IMG/VR virus record: IMGVR_UViG_2671181114_000018
Length of the DNA stretch: 29,945 bases
Reading direction: 5' to 3' (one strand)
From: a virus
Lineage: Duplodnaviria > Heunggongvirae > Uroviricota > Caudoviricetes
The number at the start of each line of letters is the position of its first letter. The first letter of the stretch is position 1. The position numbers and the translations under genes are program-made. Under the pieces are notes generated by a model, which did not search any database, was not told the DNA's origin, and saw only the letters and a list, made by a program, of their open reading frames with translations. Positions 1,729-29,945 of this stretch are shown piece by piece.

Positions 1729-2345
1729 TCCCCCTCAATTTTTGAAAAAATCAGAATCGGTCAGAAATCACCCTGATTTGTTGGTAGTTTTGTATATCTA
1801 TCTGTTAGTGACTTGAACACTGGAGCGTATACGTTAATGCAGGTATGGCGATGGTTCAGGCTGTGCAAAGTATTTCAGTTCCGCATTTCACTGCCATTCC
1901 GCGCCAGAGCACGTCAGTTAAGGCCTGGACACTTCCACGCACTGACCTGATCTCGCTGCGACCATTACGTAAAAAGTCACGTAATCGCTGTTGTTCCCGC
2001 ATGTAATCAGGCTCCGATATTTTTCATCCACAGCCGGCAATCACACAAAAACTGAAATCCTCGAAATCTGTTTCACACATTTCAGTTGGCGAACTACTGC
2101 CAAAGCCCCAGCGCTGGCGCGGTCTGGCGATGTGTTTTGTACCACCGGAAAAACTGAAATCATTCTCAACACGAAAACCGCAGGCGGGTGCGGTGTAGCG
2201 CCGTTTTCGTCACTTCCGCCGTTATTTCGTCGTGGCAGGCTGCATCAGCGCCTTGCTGCGCTTCTGAAGTTAATCAGGTTGGGATGAACGGGTGCAGATA
2301 ATTGCGGCGCTCAGAATGCGTCTGGTGAGGTCTGGGAATGGGTAC

Positions 2346-2370
2346 AAAAAAGCCCGCATTATGCGCGGGC
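2346..2370 (-). terminator. Rho-independent terminator closing the minus-strand late (tail) operon
   Basis: Plus strand aaaaaa-gcccgc-attatgc-gcgggc: 6-bp GC stem (2352-2357 / 2365-2370) with 7-nt loop. On the minus strand the hairpin is followed by TTTTTT, 12 nt after the stop of the 2382-4085 gene. Confidence 0.6.
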
Positions 2371-2381
2371 TGATGGGATGA

Positions 2382-4085
2382 TCAGGCGATTATCTTCTGG
2401 TACTTACTCCGGGTCTGACCTGCCTTCTCCGCCGTCTGTGTGAATGCGCCGGCATTGGTTGGCGTACCAACGCTGGGGTGTGAATGGCTCGCACACTGCT
2501 GCGCCAGCTCGGCCAGTAAATCAATGGTGTCCAGCATCATGGTCAGCGTGTTAACGCTCTCACTGCCAATATGGACGGTTGGCCCCATAATCTGCTGACC
2601 GCCCGATGCCACCGATTTACGTAATGCAGCAATCTTTTCTGTCAGGGTTCCCCCCACATCAACATCCACGGCACCGGCCACTTTCGTGGATTGTTTGCCG
2701 GTTATATCGGCTTCGTCATTCCCCTCAATGCTGGCCAATCTGTTGCCCTTCACGGCCTGGCTATAATCACCGGCACTGACCTGCTGAATGGCTCCGGCCA
2801 TCAGGGTGGCGGTACCCAGCACCGTGGTTTTATCAGTGGCTTTAACTGTCGTTTCACGGCTGACCAGATCACGCTGTTCTGTATCGGCTTTAACCGTCCG
2901 CGCCATCGATGTTTCGCTGATGGTCTGATCGGTCTGCCGTACCCAATCGCCAGCCTGGGTAACGCGCTGCGACACTTCAGCCCGCTGCTGTTGCAGCTGC
3001 TCACCGGGCTTAACATCCGGCAGGCTGGTACCATCCGGCAGTGTCTGCCTGATAAACGGTTTATCAGGTCGCCCCCCGGTAAACGCAACTTCAACCAGCG
3101 TCCCTTCTGGCGGGAACTGGAACATGCCAGAGTCATTCCCGGCCATAGGTACCGGCAGCGGCACCGCTGAATAAACCGGCGTCTGGTTGTCCGGGTTGCC
3201 GTCTGCATCAAGCAGCTGCACATCAACGGCATAGCGCGGCCGGAACGGATCGGCAAAATTACCACTTTTCACAGTCTCACTGGGTGCCACCACTCTGGCC
3301 AGTTTTGGCAGGTGCAGCCCGGAAGCCAGTTCCGGGTAATGGCTTTCAATCTGGCGCTGTGCCGGTGTTTTCTGTAATGGCTGACCTGTTGCGCGGTTTC
3401 TGGGTGTCCAGGTGATGGCCATGGTGTCATTGGTCAGATGAACTTTGGTCACGCGTTCTCCGTTCAGCTCCACACCCGGCCGCAGACTCTGGATCACTGG
3501 CAGCGTCATGGAATGACCGCCAGCCGCCCCCTGGCTGAACTCTGCCGGGATATCAACCGGACGATCGGCGAACATCGCTTTTTCCGCGCCGCCCACATAC
3601 AGGGAACCATCCGGCAACTGGTACCAGATGTAATCCGGGATACTGAATGCTTTGCCCAGATTATTCAGCAACTGATAGCCAGTGCCATTGTGGGTGAAAT
3701 GGGGGATCGGCTTATCGCTGTATGGGGCATCCGGCACACTGACAGCAATTCCGCTGTTTTCCTCCAGCCAGATGGCTACCTTGCGCAAAGTGGGATGCTG
3801 AAATGAACATGGCCACATCCTTTCAAATACGCCGACCAGCTCGCGCACAAACAGACGCTGAAAACCGTTTTCGGCGGGTTGTGCGCGTTCCACATAGCCG
3901 GTAAACCAGCGCAAAAGCAGATCGGAATAACCCACATCCAGCCGCACCAGTTTCCCGGTGTAATCCGTGGCTGTCTGTGCGGTGATAAACCCCCGGCCAC
4001 AGCTGCTCAGCTCCAGCACCAGGCTGGCATCAGCCAGATGAACTTCATCCGTTGAAAGGTACAGGCGTTTAACTGGTTTCATCAT
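2382..4085 (-). CDS. Baseplate central hub-spike protein (gpV/gp5-type OB-fold domain with N-terminal extension; VgrG-like arrangement)
   Basis: 567 aa, last gene of the late operon. 'EGTLVEVAFTGGRPDKPFI' resembles the gpV/gp5/VgrG OB-fold signature (xVLVxFxxGDxDRPxV); C-terminal 'CASHSHP' resembles the HxH metal-binding spike apex. From memory; no HMM run. Confidence 0.5.
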   Translation of the reverse strand: MMKPVKRLYLSTDEVHLADASLVLELSSCGRGFITAQTATDYTGKLVRLDVGYSDLLLRWFTGYVERAQPAENGFQRLFVRELVGVFERMWPCSFQHPTLRKVAIWLEENSGIAVSVPDAPYSDKPIPHFTHNGTGYQLLNNLGKAFSIPDYIWYQLPDGSLYVGGAEKAMFADRPVDIPAEFSQGAAGGHSMTLPVIQSLRPGVELNGERVTKVHLTNDTMAITWTPRNRATGQPLQKTPAQRQIESHYPELASGLHLPKLARVVAPSETVKSGNFADPFRPRYAVDVQLLDADGNPDNQTPVYSAVPLPVPMAGNDSGMFQFPPEGTLVEVAFTGGRPDKPFIRQTLPDGTSLPDVKPGEQLQQQRAEVSQRVTQAGDWVRQTDQTISETSMARTVKADTEQRDLVSRETTVKATDKTTVLGTATLMAGAIQQVSAGDYSQAVKGNRLASIEGNDEADITGKQSTKVAGAVDVDVGGTLTEKIAALRKSVASGGQQIMGPTVHIGSESVNTLTMMLDTIDLLAELAQQCASHSHPSVGTPTNAGAFTQTAEKAGQTRSKYQKIIA

Positions 4086-5663: not shown

Positions 5664-7451
5664 TTATCTTAACTCCGTCCAGGCCCTCAATATCGTAGAG
5701 ACACCAGAAACATCAACCCGGTAGGTAAAGCCCGGTGGGACAATGAAAAACGCGGTTGCAAGCGATGTGTCTAAAGCGGTTGCACCACCACCACCAAATT
5801 CAATCCCATTGATATAAGCATAAAGGTTTGCTGACGTTCCCCCAGTAATTCGGACATATACTGCTATCGGAAACCCTGTGGAATTGGTGTATGTCACCCC
5901 GGTTCCACGAGATGATTTTAAATCCTGTAATGTTTGCCCTTTACCTAGAGATGGGTAAGTTTGTATTGCAGTAGTTACTGCCGCCTGCGGCATGACTAAA
6001 GAATTTGATCCCCCCATTGAATTAACAAGCTGAACAAGACCTGCATTTGTGATAGTTGCCCCGTCCGCTGTGTATTTTGACTGCGCCAGTTCATATGCAG
6101 ATTGCGCCTGTTTCAGCACATAATTTACAGCGGTGGTGGTGGCAGCGGTTTTTGAATCAGGCGCACCTGTATTGTCACTGAGCATGACAATACCTTTCTG
6201 CGACGTTGTCGCTTCAACTGCACTCCATTTCTTTTTAGCAATTTCCGCTGCGGCCATTGCCGTGTCATAAGCAATTTTTACCGCACCTGACGTTGCAGCA
6301 GTCTCGTTACTTTCATCTGTTACTCCACCATTAAGACGAACCAGCCCCTTTTGTGAGGTAGAAGCATCGTAAATACCTATGTTTTGCCTGAATAATGCAG
6401 GGTTAAGGATATCCCCACCATTCCGCTCTTTAGCAAGACGCGCATTGGCATTATCCATCGCGATTTTGACTGCTTTCGGTGTAGCGGCCTGTCCTTCACT
6501 AGTGCTGTCTGTCGCGCTGCTTAACTGGGTGAATCCCTTCGCGCTGGTCGTGGCATCAGGATGATTTCGGGACTGCTCATGCTTTTTAAGCGCATCGCTG
6601 GCCTGTTGTTCGTTCAGCGTCCCTTTGGGCCGTAAATCCGTGATATTGCCATTCACATCAATGCTGGCCACGGCAAACACATAATGCTGTACGCCGTTCT
6701 GCACGTAATCCGTCAGGTTTTCCGCCACGGTGATTTTGCACTGAGCATTCCACATACTGGTAAGCGATCCTGTCCAGCACACATCCAGCCAGACTTTGAC
6801 CGGTTTTGTCGTCACGGTGATATTCTGATTGTCAGCCAGTGACGTACGCAGTCCTGCCACATAGCCGGTACCTTTGGTCACAAAGAACTGATTGCCCGTT
6901 TTACTGACCAGCCAGCCATCGCCAAAGAATGCCGCAGCCCCGTAAATATCCGTGTTTTCCAGGCGCTGACGTTCATCCATTCCGGCCATTCGCGCCGTGA
7001 AATCAATCTGCCAGGTCTCAGCCGGTGTATTAATCCCGGTTTCAGTCTGTGCGCCGTTGTACTCCATCAGAAACGAGCGGGTAAGCACGTTCCCCTGTTG
7101 CCCTTCCGCTGTTTTCAGCTTCTGCTGCACAGGCGCATGAACAATCATGGCCAGGGTGCCACTGGCCTTATTCAGCAGACCGATCCAGTTAAAACTGAAG
7201 TCGCCCACATCCGCGCCCAGAACGGTGGAATACACCACGCCGTTTTCATTCACCACGCCAGTGCGGGTAACAGGCTGCCGGTGCACAATCTGCTCCACAG
7301 GTGGCAGTGCTTCATTCCGGTCAACGGGTGTATCCGGGTTCAGTCCTGGCACATTTGCAAACACAAATTCATCCAGTAACACCGGCTCGCCGGTTGCACC
7401 CTGCTGCGCTTTCCAGTGCTCAAATGCCAGCGTGATAGCTGTCTGTGACAT
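5664..7451 (-). CDS. Tail fibre protein (P2 H-like central motif)
   Basis: 595 aa; internal 'HEQSRNHPDATTSAKGFTQLSSATDSTSEGQAATPKAVKIA' matches the conserved P2 gpH-family motif (HEQSRRHPDA..AKGFTQLSSATNSTSETLAATPKAVK) as I recall it. Followed by Tfa. Confidence 0.8.
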   Translation of the reverse strand: MSQTAITLAFEHWKAQQGATGEPVLLDEFVFANVPGLNPDTPVDRNEALPPVEQIVHRQPVTRTGVVNENGVVYSTVLGADVGDFSFNWIGLLNKASGTLAMIVHAPVQQKLKTAEGQQGNVLTRSFLMEYNGAQTETGINTPAETWQIDFTARMAGMDERQRLENTDIYGAAAFFGDGWLVSKTGNQFFVTKGTGYVAGLRTSLADNQNITVTTKPVKVWLDVCWTGSLTSMWNAQCKITVAENLTDYVQNGVQHYVFAVASIDVNGNITDLRPKGTLNEQQASDALKKHEQSRNHPDATTSAKGFTQLSSATDSTSEGQAATPKAVKIAMDNANARLAKERNGGDILNPALFRQNIGIYDASTSQKGLVRLNGGVTDESNETAATSGAVKIAYDTAMAAAEIAKKKWSAVEATTSQKGIVMLSDNTGAPDSKTAATTTAVNYVLKQAQSAYELAQSKYTADGATITNAGLVQLVNSMGGSNSLVMPQAAVTTAIQTYPSLGKGQTLQDLKSSRGTGVTYTNSTGFPIAVYVRITGGTSANLYAYINGIEFGGGGATALDTSLATAFFIVPPGFTYRVDVSGVSTILRAWTELR

Positions 7452-16669: not shown

Positions 16670-17368
16670 CTATTTTTCAAGCGCCCGCAGACGGGCAGCG
16701 ATACGCTGCAACATCGTGCCAACGCCACATTTAGGGTCGAATCCCTTCGCCTGCTCCAGCAAATCCTTCGCCCGGAGCAATACATCCCTGTCTTCCGTTG
16801 CCGCTGCGCGTGGCTCTCCGTTCTCATCGCGTAGCAGGTGCAGACCGGCAAACTTCACGTATTTGGCCTTAATGACCTCATACACATTCCAGTGCTGCAT
16901 AACGTTTCCCAGCGTGCGGCTGAAATACGGCTCCACATCCTGCCCCTGTGCGGCTTCCGTCTCCGCCCAGGCCAGTACCGTATCGGCCACAAACACCGGG
17001 AACGCACTGCCGAACGCGGCCGGGGTTTCCTGTCCCCGTTCGATGGCCACATCCGCCCAGTCCAGCGCCTGATCAAACTGGCCAGTATCAAACAGCCAGA
17101 CGACACACCAGGCAAAAACGGGATTCTGATGCGTACTGTCACTTTCCAGCCAGGTTTGTGCGGTCGGCATCCAGCGGGGCAACAGCACATCGCGCTTGAA
17201 CTCCATACGCTCTGCACGGTTGCTAATCGCTGCGGCCGCTGCCACATCCTTTTCCAGCGCGGCAATCTGGACATGCAGACTGGTTTCGCTGTCAAGCGAC
17301 TGCTGCTGACGCAGTAACCGCTCCGCCTCTATACGTGCACTGTGTCGCTGTGCCGGTGACAGTTGCAT
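16670..17368 (-). CDS. Terminase endonuclease (small) subunit (P2 M-like)
   Basis: 232 aa immediately downstream of the major capsid gene; order O-N-M-L and size match P2 gpM. Confidence 0.65.
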   Translation of the reverse strand: MQLSPAQRHSARIEAERLLRQQQSLDSETSLHVQIAALEKDVAAAAAISNRAERMEFKRDVLLPRWMPTAQTWLESDSTHQNPVFAWCVVWLFDTGQFDQALDWADVAIERGQETPAAFGSAFPVFVADTVLAWAETEAAQGQDVEPYFSRTLGNVMQHWNVYEVIKAKYVKFAGLHLLRDENGEPRAAATEDRDVLLRAKDLLEQAKGFDPKCGVGTMLQRIAARLRALEK

Positions 17369-19272: not shown

Positions 19273-19415
19273 ATTGCCTCCCTTCCTGCTGCGGTTTTCA
19301 GTATCGCCAATTAAATTAACCGCCGCATTCACTTCATTTCGGATATAAACAATTAGCCGAACACATCAGAAATAAAGCAGGATTTAATAAAGAAGCGCCC
19401 GTGCATAATGTGTGC

Positions 19416-21200
19416 ATGGCTAAATACTCAGAAGAATTAAAAGGCGTTGCGCGGGCGCTTTATTTAAAACGTTATACCCCGCAGGAAATTGCCAGTGAAC
19501 TTAATCTGCCTAACAGACGCATTGTCTATTACTGGGCAGCGAAATATTGCTGGGCGGAATTACTCAGCCACGAATCAACCGAGGACGCATTAAACCGCCG
19601 CATTCAGTCTCTGACATTACGTGAAGGGAAATCCGAGCTGGAGCTGCGGGAGCTGGACAGCCTCGTTTCTCACCTGGTGAAACTGCGAGCACAGCATAAT
19701 AAGCATCAGGAAAAACTGGCAGAAATTAAGCACAGCGAAAGTGATGCGCCGACGTCCCGTCAGTCCGGTGGAGACGAAAAGCCCCGTAAACGTGGCAAGT
19801 ACAAAAAAAATGATATCAGCGGGCTGACGCAGGAAGATTTCGACCGGTTCGCGCTCGAGCACCTTTTCGGCTACCAGAAACACCTTCGCGCCAATCTCAA
19901 TCAGCAAATCAGGAACATCCTGAAAAGTCGCCAGATTGGCGCAACCTGGTATTTCTCAATAGAAGCCTTTGAAAATGCGGTTATGACAGGCGATCCGCAA
20001 ATCTTCCTGTCCGCGTCAAAGGCTCAGGCTGAAGTGTTCCGCAGCTATATCGTCAACATTGCGGAGCAGTATTTCGGCGTGGAGCTGACAGGCAACCCCA
20101 TCCGCCTGTCCAACGGTGCGGAGTTGCGCTTCCTGTCCACCAATAAGAACACCGCCCAGTCATACAGTGGTCATCTGTATTGTGATGAATATTTCTGGGT
20201 ACCCAACTTTGCAAAATTAAACGAAGTGGCCAGCGCAATGGCCACACACGACAAATGGCGCACCACCTACTTTTCCACTCCCAGCAGCAAAACACACCAG
20301 GCTTACCCGTTCTGGACAGGTGAAGAATGGAAGCGCGGCAACAAAAAACGCGCACGCGTGGCGTTTCCAACAGAGAAGGAGCTGCGTGACGGTGGACGGT
20401 TATGTCCTGATGGCCAGTGGCGCTACATCATCACACTGGAAGACGCGATTGCGGGCGGGTTCAATCTGGCCAGCATCGAAAAACTACGTAATCGCTACAA
20501 CCGCGACACTTTCAACATGCTGTACATGTGCGTTTTCGTGGACAGCAAAGACAGCGTTTTTTCGTTCTCCCATGTGGAACGCTGCTGTATTGATCCGGAT
20601 ATCTGGGAGGATCATGACGAAGACCTGCCCCGGCCATTCGGCAATCGTGAAGTATGGGCAGGCTATGACCCGGCTCGCAGCGGCGACACCTCAACCTTTG
20701 TCATTGTCGCCCCGCCGATAGTGGCCGTCGAAAAATTTCGCGTACTACGCGTATTCCACTGGCAGGGAATGAACTGGAAATGGCAGGCGGCACAAATCAA
20801 AAAACTGTTTGGCCAGTACAACATGACTTACATCGGGATTGATATCACCGGGCTGGGGAGTGGTGTCTTTGAAGATGTGCAGCACTTTGCCATGCGTCAG
20901 GCGGTGGCTATCCGCTATGGCGTGGAAACCAAAAACCGCCTGGTGATGAAGATGATCGACGTTATCGAAGACAACCGCGTGGAGTGGGACAAGGAGAAAA
21001 CTGAAATCGCCGCCAGCTTTATGACCATCCGCAGAACGTCCACGGCCAGCGGTAACGCCATGACGTTTGTTGCCGACCGTACAGCTGAAACCGGCCACGC
21101 TGACAGTTTCTGGGCTATCGCCCATGCCATAGACAACGAACCATTACACTTTGAAAACCAGCGCAAATCACGCTGGGGTAACTTAGGGAAAGCAGCATGA
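19416..21200 (+). CDS. Terminase ATPase (large) subunit (P2 P-like)
   Basis: Track ORF 19401-21200 (599 aa); probable start 'MAKYSEELKG' at 19416. Size and position (P then Q, divergent from O-N-M-L) as P2 gpP. Confidence 0.85.
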   Translation: MAKYSEELKGVARALYLKRYTPQEIASELNLPNRRIVYYWAAKYCWAELLSHESTEDALNRRIQSLTLREGKSELELRELDSLVSHLVKLRAQHNKHQEKLAEIKHSESDAPTSRQSGGDEKPRKRGKYKKNDISGLTQEDFDRFALEHLFGYQKHLRANLNQQIRNILKSRQIGATWYFSIEAFENAVMTGDPQIFLSASKAQAEVFRSYIVNIAEQYFGVELTGNPIRLSNGAELRFLSTNKNTAQSYSGHLYCDEYFWVPNFAKLNEVASAMATHDKWRTTYFSTPSSKTHQAYPFWTGEEWKRGNKKRARVAFPTEKELRDGGRLCPDGQWRYIITLEDAIAGGFNLASIEKLRNRYNRDTFNMLYMCVFVDSKDSVFSFSHVERCCIDPDIWEDHDEDLPRPFGNREVWAGYDPARSGDTSTFVIVAPPIVAVEKFRVLRVFHWQGMNWKWQAAQIKKLFGQYNMTYIGIDITGLGSGVFEDVQHFAMRQAVAIRYGVETKNRLVMKMIDVIEDNRVEWDKEKTEIAASFMTIRRTSTASGNAMTFVADRTAETGHADSFWAIAHAIDNEPLHFENQRKSRWGNLGKAA

Positions 21201-29362: not shown

Positions 29363-29446
29363 CTAAATATGGCTTTCAGTGGTCTTGTGTGCCGCGCAAA
29401 CCCGCATTGCACCGTTGAAAGCCCCTATTGTAAGGGTACATAAACG

Positions 29447-29469
29447 CCCTTACACGGGCTTATTTTTTT
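29447..29469. other. Phage attachment-site core (prophage right junction), P2-type core
   Basis: cccttacacgggcttattttttt is the reverse complement of the P2 att core AAAAAATAAGCCCGTGTAAGGG as I remember it; about 85 bp downstream of int, within a hairpin (gtaaggg...cccttac) plus T-run. Confidence 0.6.
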
Positions 29470-29627
29470 ATGCATAAGCCCTATCTCTGGTAACCGTCTT
29501 CCATTGACCACATCGATAGAATCCTCCTTCATAGCACGATGCCTTTCACTTATCGGCATCGTGCTCCCACAAGTTCCGGCTACGCACAGCCAGAACGCGC
29601 ATATTTGACGCTTACCAAAAAATATTC

Positions 29628-29945
29628 TCACTCTCCACATTTGAATGTCAGACGAGCGACACCATGTAATCCTACACCTTCTGTCTTCAGCTCAACTATT
29701 TGCATTTTTTTGCCCTGAGTAACACAGAAATGAGTTGCATCATTTTTTACTATATTTTCTGCACCAGATATTCTACCCCTGGCTAAAGAAGCTTCGGCTT
29801 CGGTGTAGTATTGGTTATCGAGTTTACGCTGAATATTACTTTTATATGCAAGACCAAATTTACCGATACTTGTCTCATCATTATGCACAGCACAACCAGA
29901 CATAATAAAAATACTAATTAATGATATAGCAGCTATCTTTTTCAT
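29628..29945 (-). CDS. Small lipoprotein (probably flanking, non-phage gene)
   Basis: 105 aa starting at the window edge; signal peptide with lipobox 'IMSGC' (MKKIAAISLISIFIMSGCAV). AT-rich; outside the att core. Confidence 0.55.
   Translation of the reverse strand: MKKIAAISLISIFIMSGCAVHNDETSIGKFGLAYKSNIQRKLDNQYYTEAEASLARGRISGAENIVKNDATHFCVTQGKKMQIVELKTEGVGLHGVARLTFKCGE

Follow-up and report, generated by a model that had tools for sequence, protein, structure and literature searches.

The window, that is, the whole stretch of 29,945 nt analysed here (IMG/VR virus record IMGVR_UViG_2671181114_000018), covers nearly the whole genome of a temperate phage in the P2 family (Peduoviridae). Genes for the scaffold, the capsid and the small terminase lie on the minus strand, while those for the large terminase, the portal and Ogr lie on the plus strand; a Toprim/helicase primase, Cox, a repressor and an integrase are also encoded. 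This set includes P2-type large and small terminases, as well as the genes for the portal, the scaffold and the capsid. Among sequenced phages, Escherichia phage ESSI2_ev239, Cronobacter phage ESSI-2, Yersinia phage vB_YenM_324 and their relatives are the closest, and a scan of species-representative genomes with 40-mers retrieved further relatives from Enterobacter, Salmonella, Pseudocitrobacter, Sodalis and Erwinia, with ∼71-79% identity. The minus-strand late operon ends with homologues of HP1 orf33, orf34 and orf35, the products encoded at this end being a 241-aa protein, a 181-aa protein (Pfam HP1_ORF34, E=3e-54) and a 567-aa spike or baseplate protein (2382-4085). At the other end of the window, 265 bp of non-coding DNA downstream of int (29363-29627) are the expected place of attP if HP1 is taken as the model; next comes a 105-aa minus-strand ORF with no assigned function (29628-29945, phrog_21109). 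No tRNA gene or tRNA fragment was detected anywhere in the window.

Between an iteron array and the terminator of the late operon, the original prediction had placed an ORF-poor spacer of about 600 bp, and the present analysis confirms that this interval exists and that it is devoid of any conserved gene. The statement that the spacer is not AT-rich also holds, with ∼50% G+C in the interval and values from 0.43 to 0.56 across 1700-2400, compared with 0.29-0.34 in the iteron array and 0.55-0.60 in the late genes. Likewise, the repeated 12-mer was found to be part of an exact 13-mer, AAAAACTGAAATC, present at 2047-2059 and 2149-2161, and the inverted repeat corresponds to a real 9-bp pair (2050-2058 and 2079-2087). 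When one mismatch was allowed, AAAAACTGAAATC had 3 matches in the window versus 0.02 expected, and the 9-mer AACTGAAAT was present 6 times versus 0.29 expected, with four of the six copies located at 1872-2160 in both orientations. The two copies outside this region are at 20996-21008 and 24515-23, and one outlying copy lies within the large-terminase gene, as GAAAACTGAAATC. The 12-mer repeat and the inverted repeat are the most conserved parts of a cis-acting region of ∼370 bp (1861-2232), whose layout was derived from the conservation profile of 101 unique homologues and from motif-position histograms of 103 homologues (Table 1).

Table 1. Coordinates in the window of the features that make up or surround the conserved region, and of the two terminase genes.
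Feature	Position	Strand	Evidence or remark
Right flank of the iteron module, including the palindrome GTCAGAAATCACCCTGATTTGT (1760-1781)	1760..1860		outside the family-wide candidate cos region
Distal element CTGTGCAAAGTATTTCAGTT (motif at 1872-1880) and inverted copy of the G+C box (1893-1910, pairs with 2111-2128)	1861..1910		
Subgroup-specific conserved island GTTACGTAAAAAGTCACGTAATC, with two ACGTAA units	1963..1986		aligned relatives
Palindrome of ∼40 bp formed by the distal 13-mer and its inverted copy, AACTGAAAT-N20-ATTTCAGTT; inner half-sites CGAAAT / TTTCAC	2047..2087		
Conserved G+C box GCCCCAGCGCTGGCGCGGTCTGGCG with the palindrome CCAGCGCTGG inside	2105..2129		conservation profile over 101 sequences
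Proximal copy of the repeat AAAAACTGAAATC	2149..2161	+	exact repeat, ∼30 bp from the core
Imperfect inverted repeat around the core, ACGAAAACCGC (2171-2181) and GCCGTTTTCGT (2200-2210)	2171..2210		11-nt arms, 91% complementary, 18 nt apart
Proposed nicking site (cosN-like) core GGCGGGTGCGGTGTAG	2183..2198		contains the mapped virion DNA ends of relatives
Conserved block next to the core, towards the late operon, CGCCGTTTTCGTC...TTATTTCGTCG	2199..2232		conservation profile
Variable linker from the candidate cos region to the late terminator	2233..2340		low conservation, many indels
Rho-independent terminator of the late (tail/baseplate) operon	2341..2371	-	hairpin at 2351-2371: 8-bp stem, 6 G-C pairs, T run
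Small terminase (gpM-like), 232 aa, proposed motif reader	16670..17368	-	phrog_74, E=3.7e-70
Large terminase (gpP-like), 599 aa, proposed core-nicking nuclease	19401..21200	+	Terminase_6N, Terminase_6C and Terminase_5 domains

The most constant element of the region is a 16-mer core, located 183 nt past the stop codon of the orf35 homologue. All the relatives that BLAST retrieved without selection for the core (from Cronobacter, Yersinia, Salmonella and E. coli) carry it unchanged, with flanks that are only ∼70% identical; BLAST against phage genomes delimited ∼165 bp (2048-2212) that are common to phages of four genera at ∼70-75% identity. A search of IMG/VR with the core as the pattern returned 120 loci, of which ∼113 were true homologues with the same flanks and an orf35 homologue to the right. 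In these ∼113 relatives, both arms of the inverted repeat around the core are also kept as sequence.

In five relatives whose virion genomes were assembled independently of one another (ESSI-2, ev129, ev015, ev239 and SW5), the DNA ends fall within this core, at 2184-2198. The linear record of ESSI-2 ends with ...GCAGGCGGGTGCGGTGTAG and starts with GCGGGTGCGGTGTAG..., which places its end at window position 2198 and its start at 2184, the 15 nt of GCGGGTGCGGTGTAG being present at both ends. This duplication fits the filled-in form of a cohesive end with a 5′ overhang, and the distance between the orf35 stop codon and the start of the overhang is 198 nt in both ESSI-2 and the window. For the three ESSI2_ev genomes, which a group other than that of ESSI-2 assembled from virion DNA, the sequence begins at 2187 or 2195 and terminates at 2186 or 2191. 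According to their authors, nt 1 of these records was chosen relative to a reference genome, so that they count as independent evidence only because adapter sequence abuts the ends. Nextera adapter directly adjoins phage sequence at both ends of ev129, at the right end of ev239 and at the left end of ev015, and is absent at the right end of ev015, while the start of ev239 at 2187 is preceded by a chimeric fragment and not by adapter. The joining of adapter, and in one case of a chimeric fragment, to phage sequence is the behaviour of assemblies at true DNA ends. Also, the record of Salmonella phage SW5, which comes from a third laboratory (Nextera XT, Ray assembler), is split at the centre of the core. 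The record starts of YenM_324, SI7 and SW3 are not at the core, and no contig ending at the core was present in the checked subset of whole-contig core-matching IMG/VR metagenomic loci. The end positions scatter over 2184-2198 among the relatives and do not fix the length or the polarity of the overhang. Our literature search found no statement on the termini of ESSI-2, YenM_324 or SW5. As a side observation, the public records of ev239 (NC_049392/LR597637), ev129 (NC_049394) and ev015 (NC_049395) still contain Illumina Nextera adapter/index sequence in their first and last 40-130 nt, and that of ev239 opens with a chimeric 123-nt piece of a tail-fibre gene, equivalent to window 7144-7266.

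From the conservation of the region and the mapping of these ends, we consider it highly probable that the interval contains the cos region, where cohesive ends are cut for packaging, of a temperate P2-family phage similar to ESSI-2 and HP1. For the phage of the window itself this is the most likely assignment, made through the identity of its core with that of the relatives. The original prediction had offered a cis-acting site as one of three options, and this option is the one that gains support, in the specific form of a packaging region. A cos of this kind is well known, its position is the one expected for the family and nothing in it would surprise a phage specialist; as far as our literature search reached, neither this individual cos nor the architecture of its motifs has apparently been described before.

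The two other options were a decayed gene remnant and a structured RNA. The sole ORF of 60 aa or more found mechanically is a 98-aa frame with a TTG start (1991-2287), which crosses the core and remains open for at least 60 aa in 72 out of 115 homologues; in addition, the records of relatives annotate CDSs in this region, namely the 88-aa WP_432780809.1, two hypothetical proteins of ev239 and QEI25469.1 of SW5. That the region encodes a small protein or a decayed gene is nevertheless extremely unlikely, and the earlier judgement that it has no convincing ORF stands. Neither the 98-aa frame nor seven shorter ORFs matched Pfam or PHROG at E<0.1. There is no codon periodicity, mean entropy being equal at the three codon positions (1.02/1.05/1.01 in 101 homologues), and 329 of the 339 indels in these homologues (97%) are not multiples of three. 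Nucleotide alignment to the relatives, which had been suggested as a check, disclosed no gene remnant and no conserved frame: frames shift between close relatives, and the annotated ORFs lie on different strands depending on the record. Moreover, in virions the 98-aa frame is cut by the DNA ends, and it is open in many relatives because of the conserved DNA blocks. A 48-aa minus-strand ORF (1856-2002) was also rejected; a similar ORF is seen in locus L130, but stop codons interrupt it in L055, the closest relative, and frameshifts do so in L027, L001 and L043. Hypothetical-protein CDSs have been called over cos in L001 (3175-3505), L003 (5953-6219), L148 (18-182) and L009 (3242-3427), on different strands. 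Since the region lacks any coding signal, the CDS calls across cos in the public records of relatives are probably spurious.

With respect to RNA, the inverted repeats can form hairpins and the minimum-energy fold does contain the stem between 2050-2058 and 2079-2087, as could be expected if the region acted as an sRNA or as an element of the late-operon 3′-UTR. We regard this possibility as very improbable too. The covariance search, run with permissive E-values, gave only sub-threshold matches, with a best Rfam score of 26.2 bits against a threshold of 41, and the weak matches to Trp_leader and Arrc14 stem from the hairpin of the late terminator only. Folding of 2040-2240 was no better than that of shuffled sequences on either strand (z-scores of +1.0 and +0.4). 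No promoter-like site was found at 1530-2450, and the region is located downstream of a strong terminator. Finally, the arms of the repeats keep the same sequence, without compensating changes between the halves of the palindromes, and the conserved blocks are DNA palindromes.

The candidate cos region is characterized by an array of short motifs. In ∼90% of 114 relatives the ACTGAAA repeats keep a constant distance from the core and all lie to one side of it, and this spacing is seen in 85-90% of the homologues whatever cargo is present to the left. Of 103 homologues, 91 have the proximal ACTGAAA between -40 and -30; the palindrome, which comprises an ACTGAAA at about -135 and a TTTCAGT at about -105, is positioned in this way in 87/103, and a distal TTTCAGT at -310 or -290 in 64/103. 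The inverted copy of the G+C box has a counterpart in ESSI-2, which carries an equivalent 25-nt inverted pair. Conservation of the distal island at 1861-1910 extends to L130, which is homologous to the window only from 1861 onwards, and the island at 1963-1986 is nearly invariant (three variable positions) in 10 out of 10 aligned relatives, with variable flanks. On the other side of the core, the block at 2199-2232 is a possible cosQ-like element. The arms that flank the core are proposed to be symmetric half-sites that would position two nuclease protomers.

Homology to the relatives breaks to the left of the core at 1430, 1861, 1961, 2007 or 2048. The breakpoint at 1430 is sharp and coincides with the start of the iteron array (1430-1740), in which AAAACCATCACAA and TGTGACGGTTTT, present in both orientations, surround a centre of ∼30% G+C. 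Among the sequenced relatives this array is present only in ev239, which also has the 896-aa Toprim/helicase primase (94% identity); ESSI-2 contains neither the array nor this primase, the primase has no match in ev129, ev015 or YenM_324, and the array is absent from the scanned flanks of ev129 and YenM_324. The iteron array is probably the cognate origin of the 896-aa primase. One could then ask whether the spacer is an extension of this origin that provides accessory sites for the primase-helicase or for host factors: it directly adjoins the iterons and their A+T-rich centre, 1430-2232 moves as one block in a subgroup of relatives, and the iteron module and the primase type occur together among the sequenced phages. 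We find this very unlikely, since the core and the motif array from 2048 onwards are present in ESSI-2, which lacks both the iterons and the primase, and in ev129, ev015 and YenM_324, in which the primase has no match and, as far as the flanks were scanned, the iterons are absent, and since an origin would leave the virion DNA ends unexplained. Besides, the iteron motif is absent to the right of ∼1730; the iterons and the A+T-rich element both lie within 1430-1740, and the spacer (1760-2345) has ∼50% G+C. At most, 1760-1860 belongs to the origin module. This segment is conserved only in those relatives that also share the iteron array from 1430, that is, it travels with the array and is therefore part of the iteron module and not of cos.

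A location close to attP could in turn suggest that the region is part of attP itself, with the motifs acting as arm-type integrase or Cox sites during integration and excision. In HP1-like phages cos and attP are neighbours, the motifs of ESSI-2 lie within 900 bp of the int stop codon, and att arms typically contain short repeats that face both ways. However, the sequence is not split between the prophage ends in lysogens: 1430-2995 in L002 and 2063-2999 in L003 are each contiguous within an integrated E. coli prophage, and the junction with the host (raiA, mntR) is found 1-3 kb further left, past variable cargo genes. Regardless of the inserted cargo, it is the distance to the core that stays fixed for the motifs, and neither the distance to int nor that to the end of the prophage. 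These prophage junctions led us to reject an attP function, which has only a very small chance of being correct. The cargo genes lie in a slot between attP and the cos/iteron modules, which in the window holds a 454-aa FRG-domain protein gene on the minus strand (1-1365, 36-46% G+C). Among the relatives compared (L002, L003, L001, L009 and L011), the same slot contains an acyltransferase gene, or genes for an AAA ATPase and a serine acetyltransferase, and it is empty in ESSI-2. The slot between attP and cos is a hot spot for cargo insertion.

The assignment as cos was then compared with known systems. A literature search for a dissection of the P2 cos found nothing on the ends and returned only the work of Lavigne et al. 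(2009, PMC2771037) on the position of the HP1 cos, according to which the cos of HP1, HP2 and phiCTX adjoins attP instead of following the portal gene as in P2. The gene order in HP1 is orf33, orf34, orf35, a terminator, the annotated cos 192 nt past orf35, attP and int. The window has this same layout, with its candidate site at 183-198 nt, except that cargo genes and the iteron module have been inserted between cos and attP and separate cos from int. In HP1, TTTCAGTT is found 38 nt from the left end, a location that matches the proximal motif of the window in side and roughly in distance, and within 70 nt of cos there are ACGTAA/TTACGT units, which are reminiscent of the ACGTAA units in the island at 1963-1986. 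The occurrence of TTTCAGTT in HP1, with weak statistics, hints that the element may be older than the ESSI-2 group. In contrast, the cut sites show no alignable similarity: the record of HP1, a phage with 5′ overhangs like P2, gives a 9-nt left cohesive end, TCCTTCCCC, whereas the window has a G+C-rich core of ∼15-16 nt.

Coliphage P2, as well as 186 and P4, has 19-nt 5′ cohesive ends, GGCGAGGCGGGGAAAGCAC. P2 and the phage of the window share the same terminase family, with homologues of gpP and gpM, and other P2-like traits of the window are a G-rich candidate cohesive-end segment that starts with GGCG and is preceded by AAAACCGC, and a terminator with the end of a leftward operon ∼150 nt away. 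The P2 cos is located downstream of the portal gene Q, whereas in the window the portal and large-terminase genes are 17-19 kb from the core, and cos and terS are 14.5 kb apart. Alignment of the P2 cos with the core gave only a weak local match of G+C-rich sequence, of ambiguous orientation because the T-run+CAG element is on the opposite side. No ACTGAAA array was seen in the P2 flanks that were examined.

The ACTGAAA motif is not the only one used by this phage type. In a minority lineage, every copy of CTGAAA/TTTCAG is replaced by TGCAAA/TTTGCA at the same places, while the core and the G+C box are unchanged. This lineage comprises five IMG/VR loci, the Salmonella phages SI7, SW3 and SW5, and prophages in 19 E. 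coli genomes; the loci are L085 (1150-1560), L067, L090, L103 and L106, and an E. coli example is found in NZ_CP027388.1 at 251018-251429. The hosts of both classes are the same enterobacteria. The idea that the loci without ACTGAAA were P4-like satellites bearing the cos of a helper was discarded, as they belong to the same phage type with a different motif. The concerted swap of the motifs, as expected for the sites of one protein, together with a spacing to the core that is fixed whatever lies further left, suggests that the motifs are read by a phage-encoded recognition protein. The putative reader is probably the gpM-like small terminase. An alignment of five small terminases showed that all pairs were 50-58% identical except ESSI-2/ev015 (69%), and did not separate the two motif classes.

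In lambda, Nu1 binds the R sites (R3, R2 and R1) of cosB, and lambda and 21 have cosN in common but a different cosB. The region of the window resembles the lambda cos in that its proposed nicking site has partial two-fold symmetry and in that a one-sided repeat array, comparable to R3, R2 and R1, extends ∼30-310 bp from it; the resemblance to the lambda/21 pair lies in the existence of two lineages with the same nicking site and different repeats (CTGAAA or TGCAAA). On the other hand, the two systems differ in overhang and their proteins have no sequence relationship; binding by the small terminase of the window is only predicted, and the sequences of the small terminases do not group according to the motif. 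No IHF site was found.

On the basis of these comparisons, packaging could proceed as follows. Recognition of replicated phage DNA would rely on an array of short motifs confined to the int-proximal side of the core and consisting of ACTGAAA or its complement at about -310, -135, -105 and -35 and of the G+C box. By analogy with lambda Nu1 on the R sites, the array would probably be bound by the small terminase (16670-17368). The large terminase (19401-21200), guided by the flanking inverted half-sites, would make staggered nicks within the core and generate cohesive ends of ∼15-16 nt, probably as 5′ extensions as in P2. If the analogy with lambda holds, packaging would start on the motif side.

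Taken together, these comparisons would identify ∼400 bp of seemingly empty DNA as an essential cis-acting site. Such a site would fix the natural ends, and hence the correct zero point, for a widespread family of enterobacterial prophages, and would mark the cargo hot spot as the stretch from attP to cos. We tentatively suggest, as a possibility that may well turn out otherwise, that the ACTGAAA array represents the first cosB-like recognition element to be defined for terminases of the P2/HP1 family, and that it comes in two or more interchangeable specificity classes, CTGAAA and TGCAAA, which share an invariant nicking core. The one-sided array and the concerted swap in a sister lineage offer a cheap and concrete test of how terminases of the P2/HP1 type recognise DNA. 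If the suggestion is true, these prophages would form packaging-specificity groups, as in lambda and 21, and the array would be a natural system for studying the DNA-recognition code of gpM-type small terminases.
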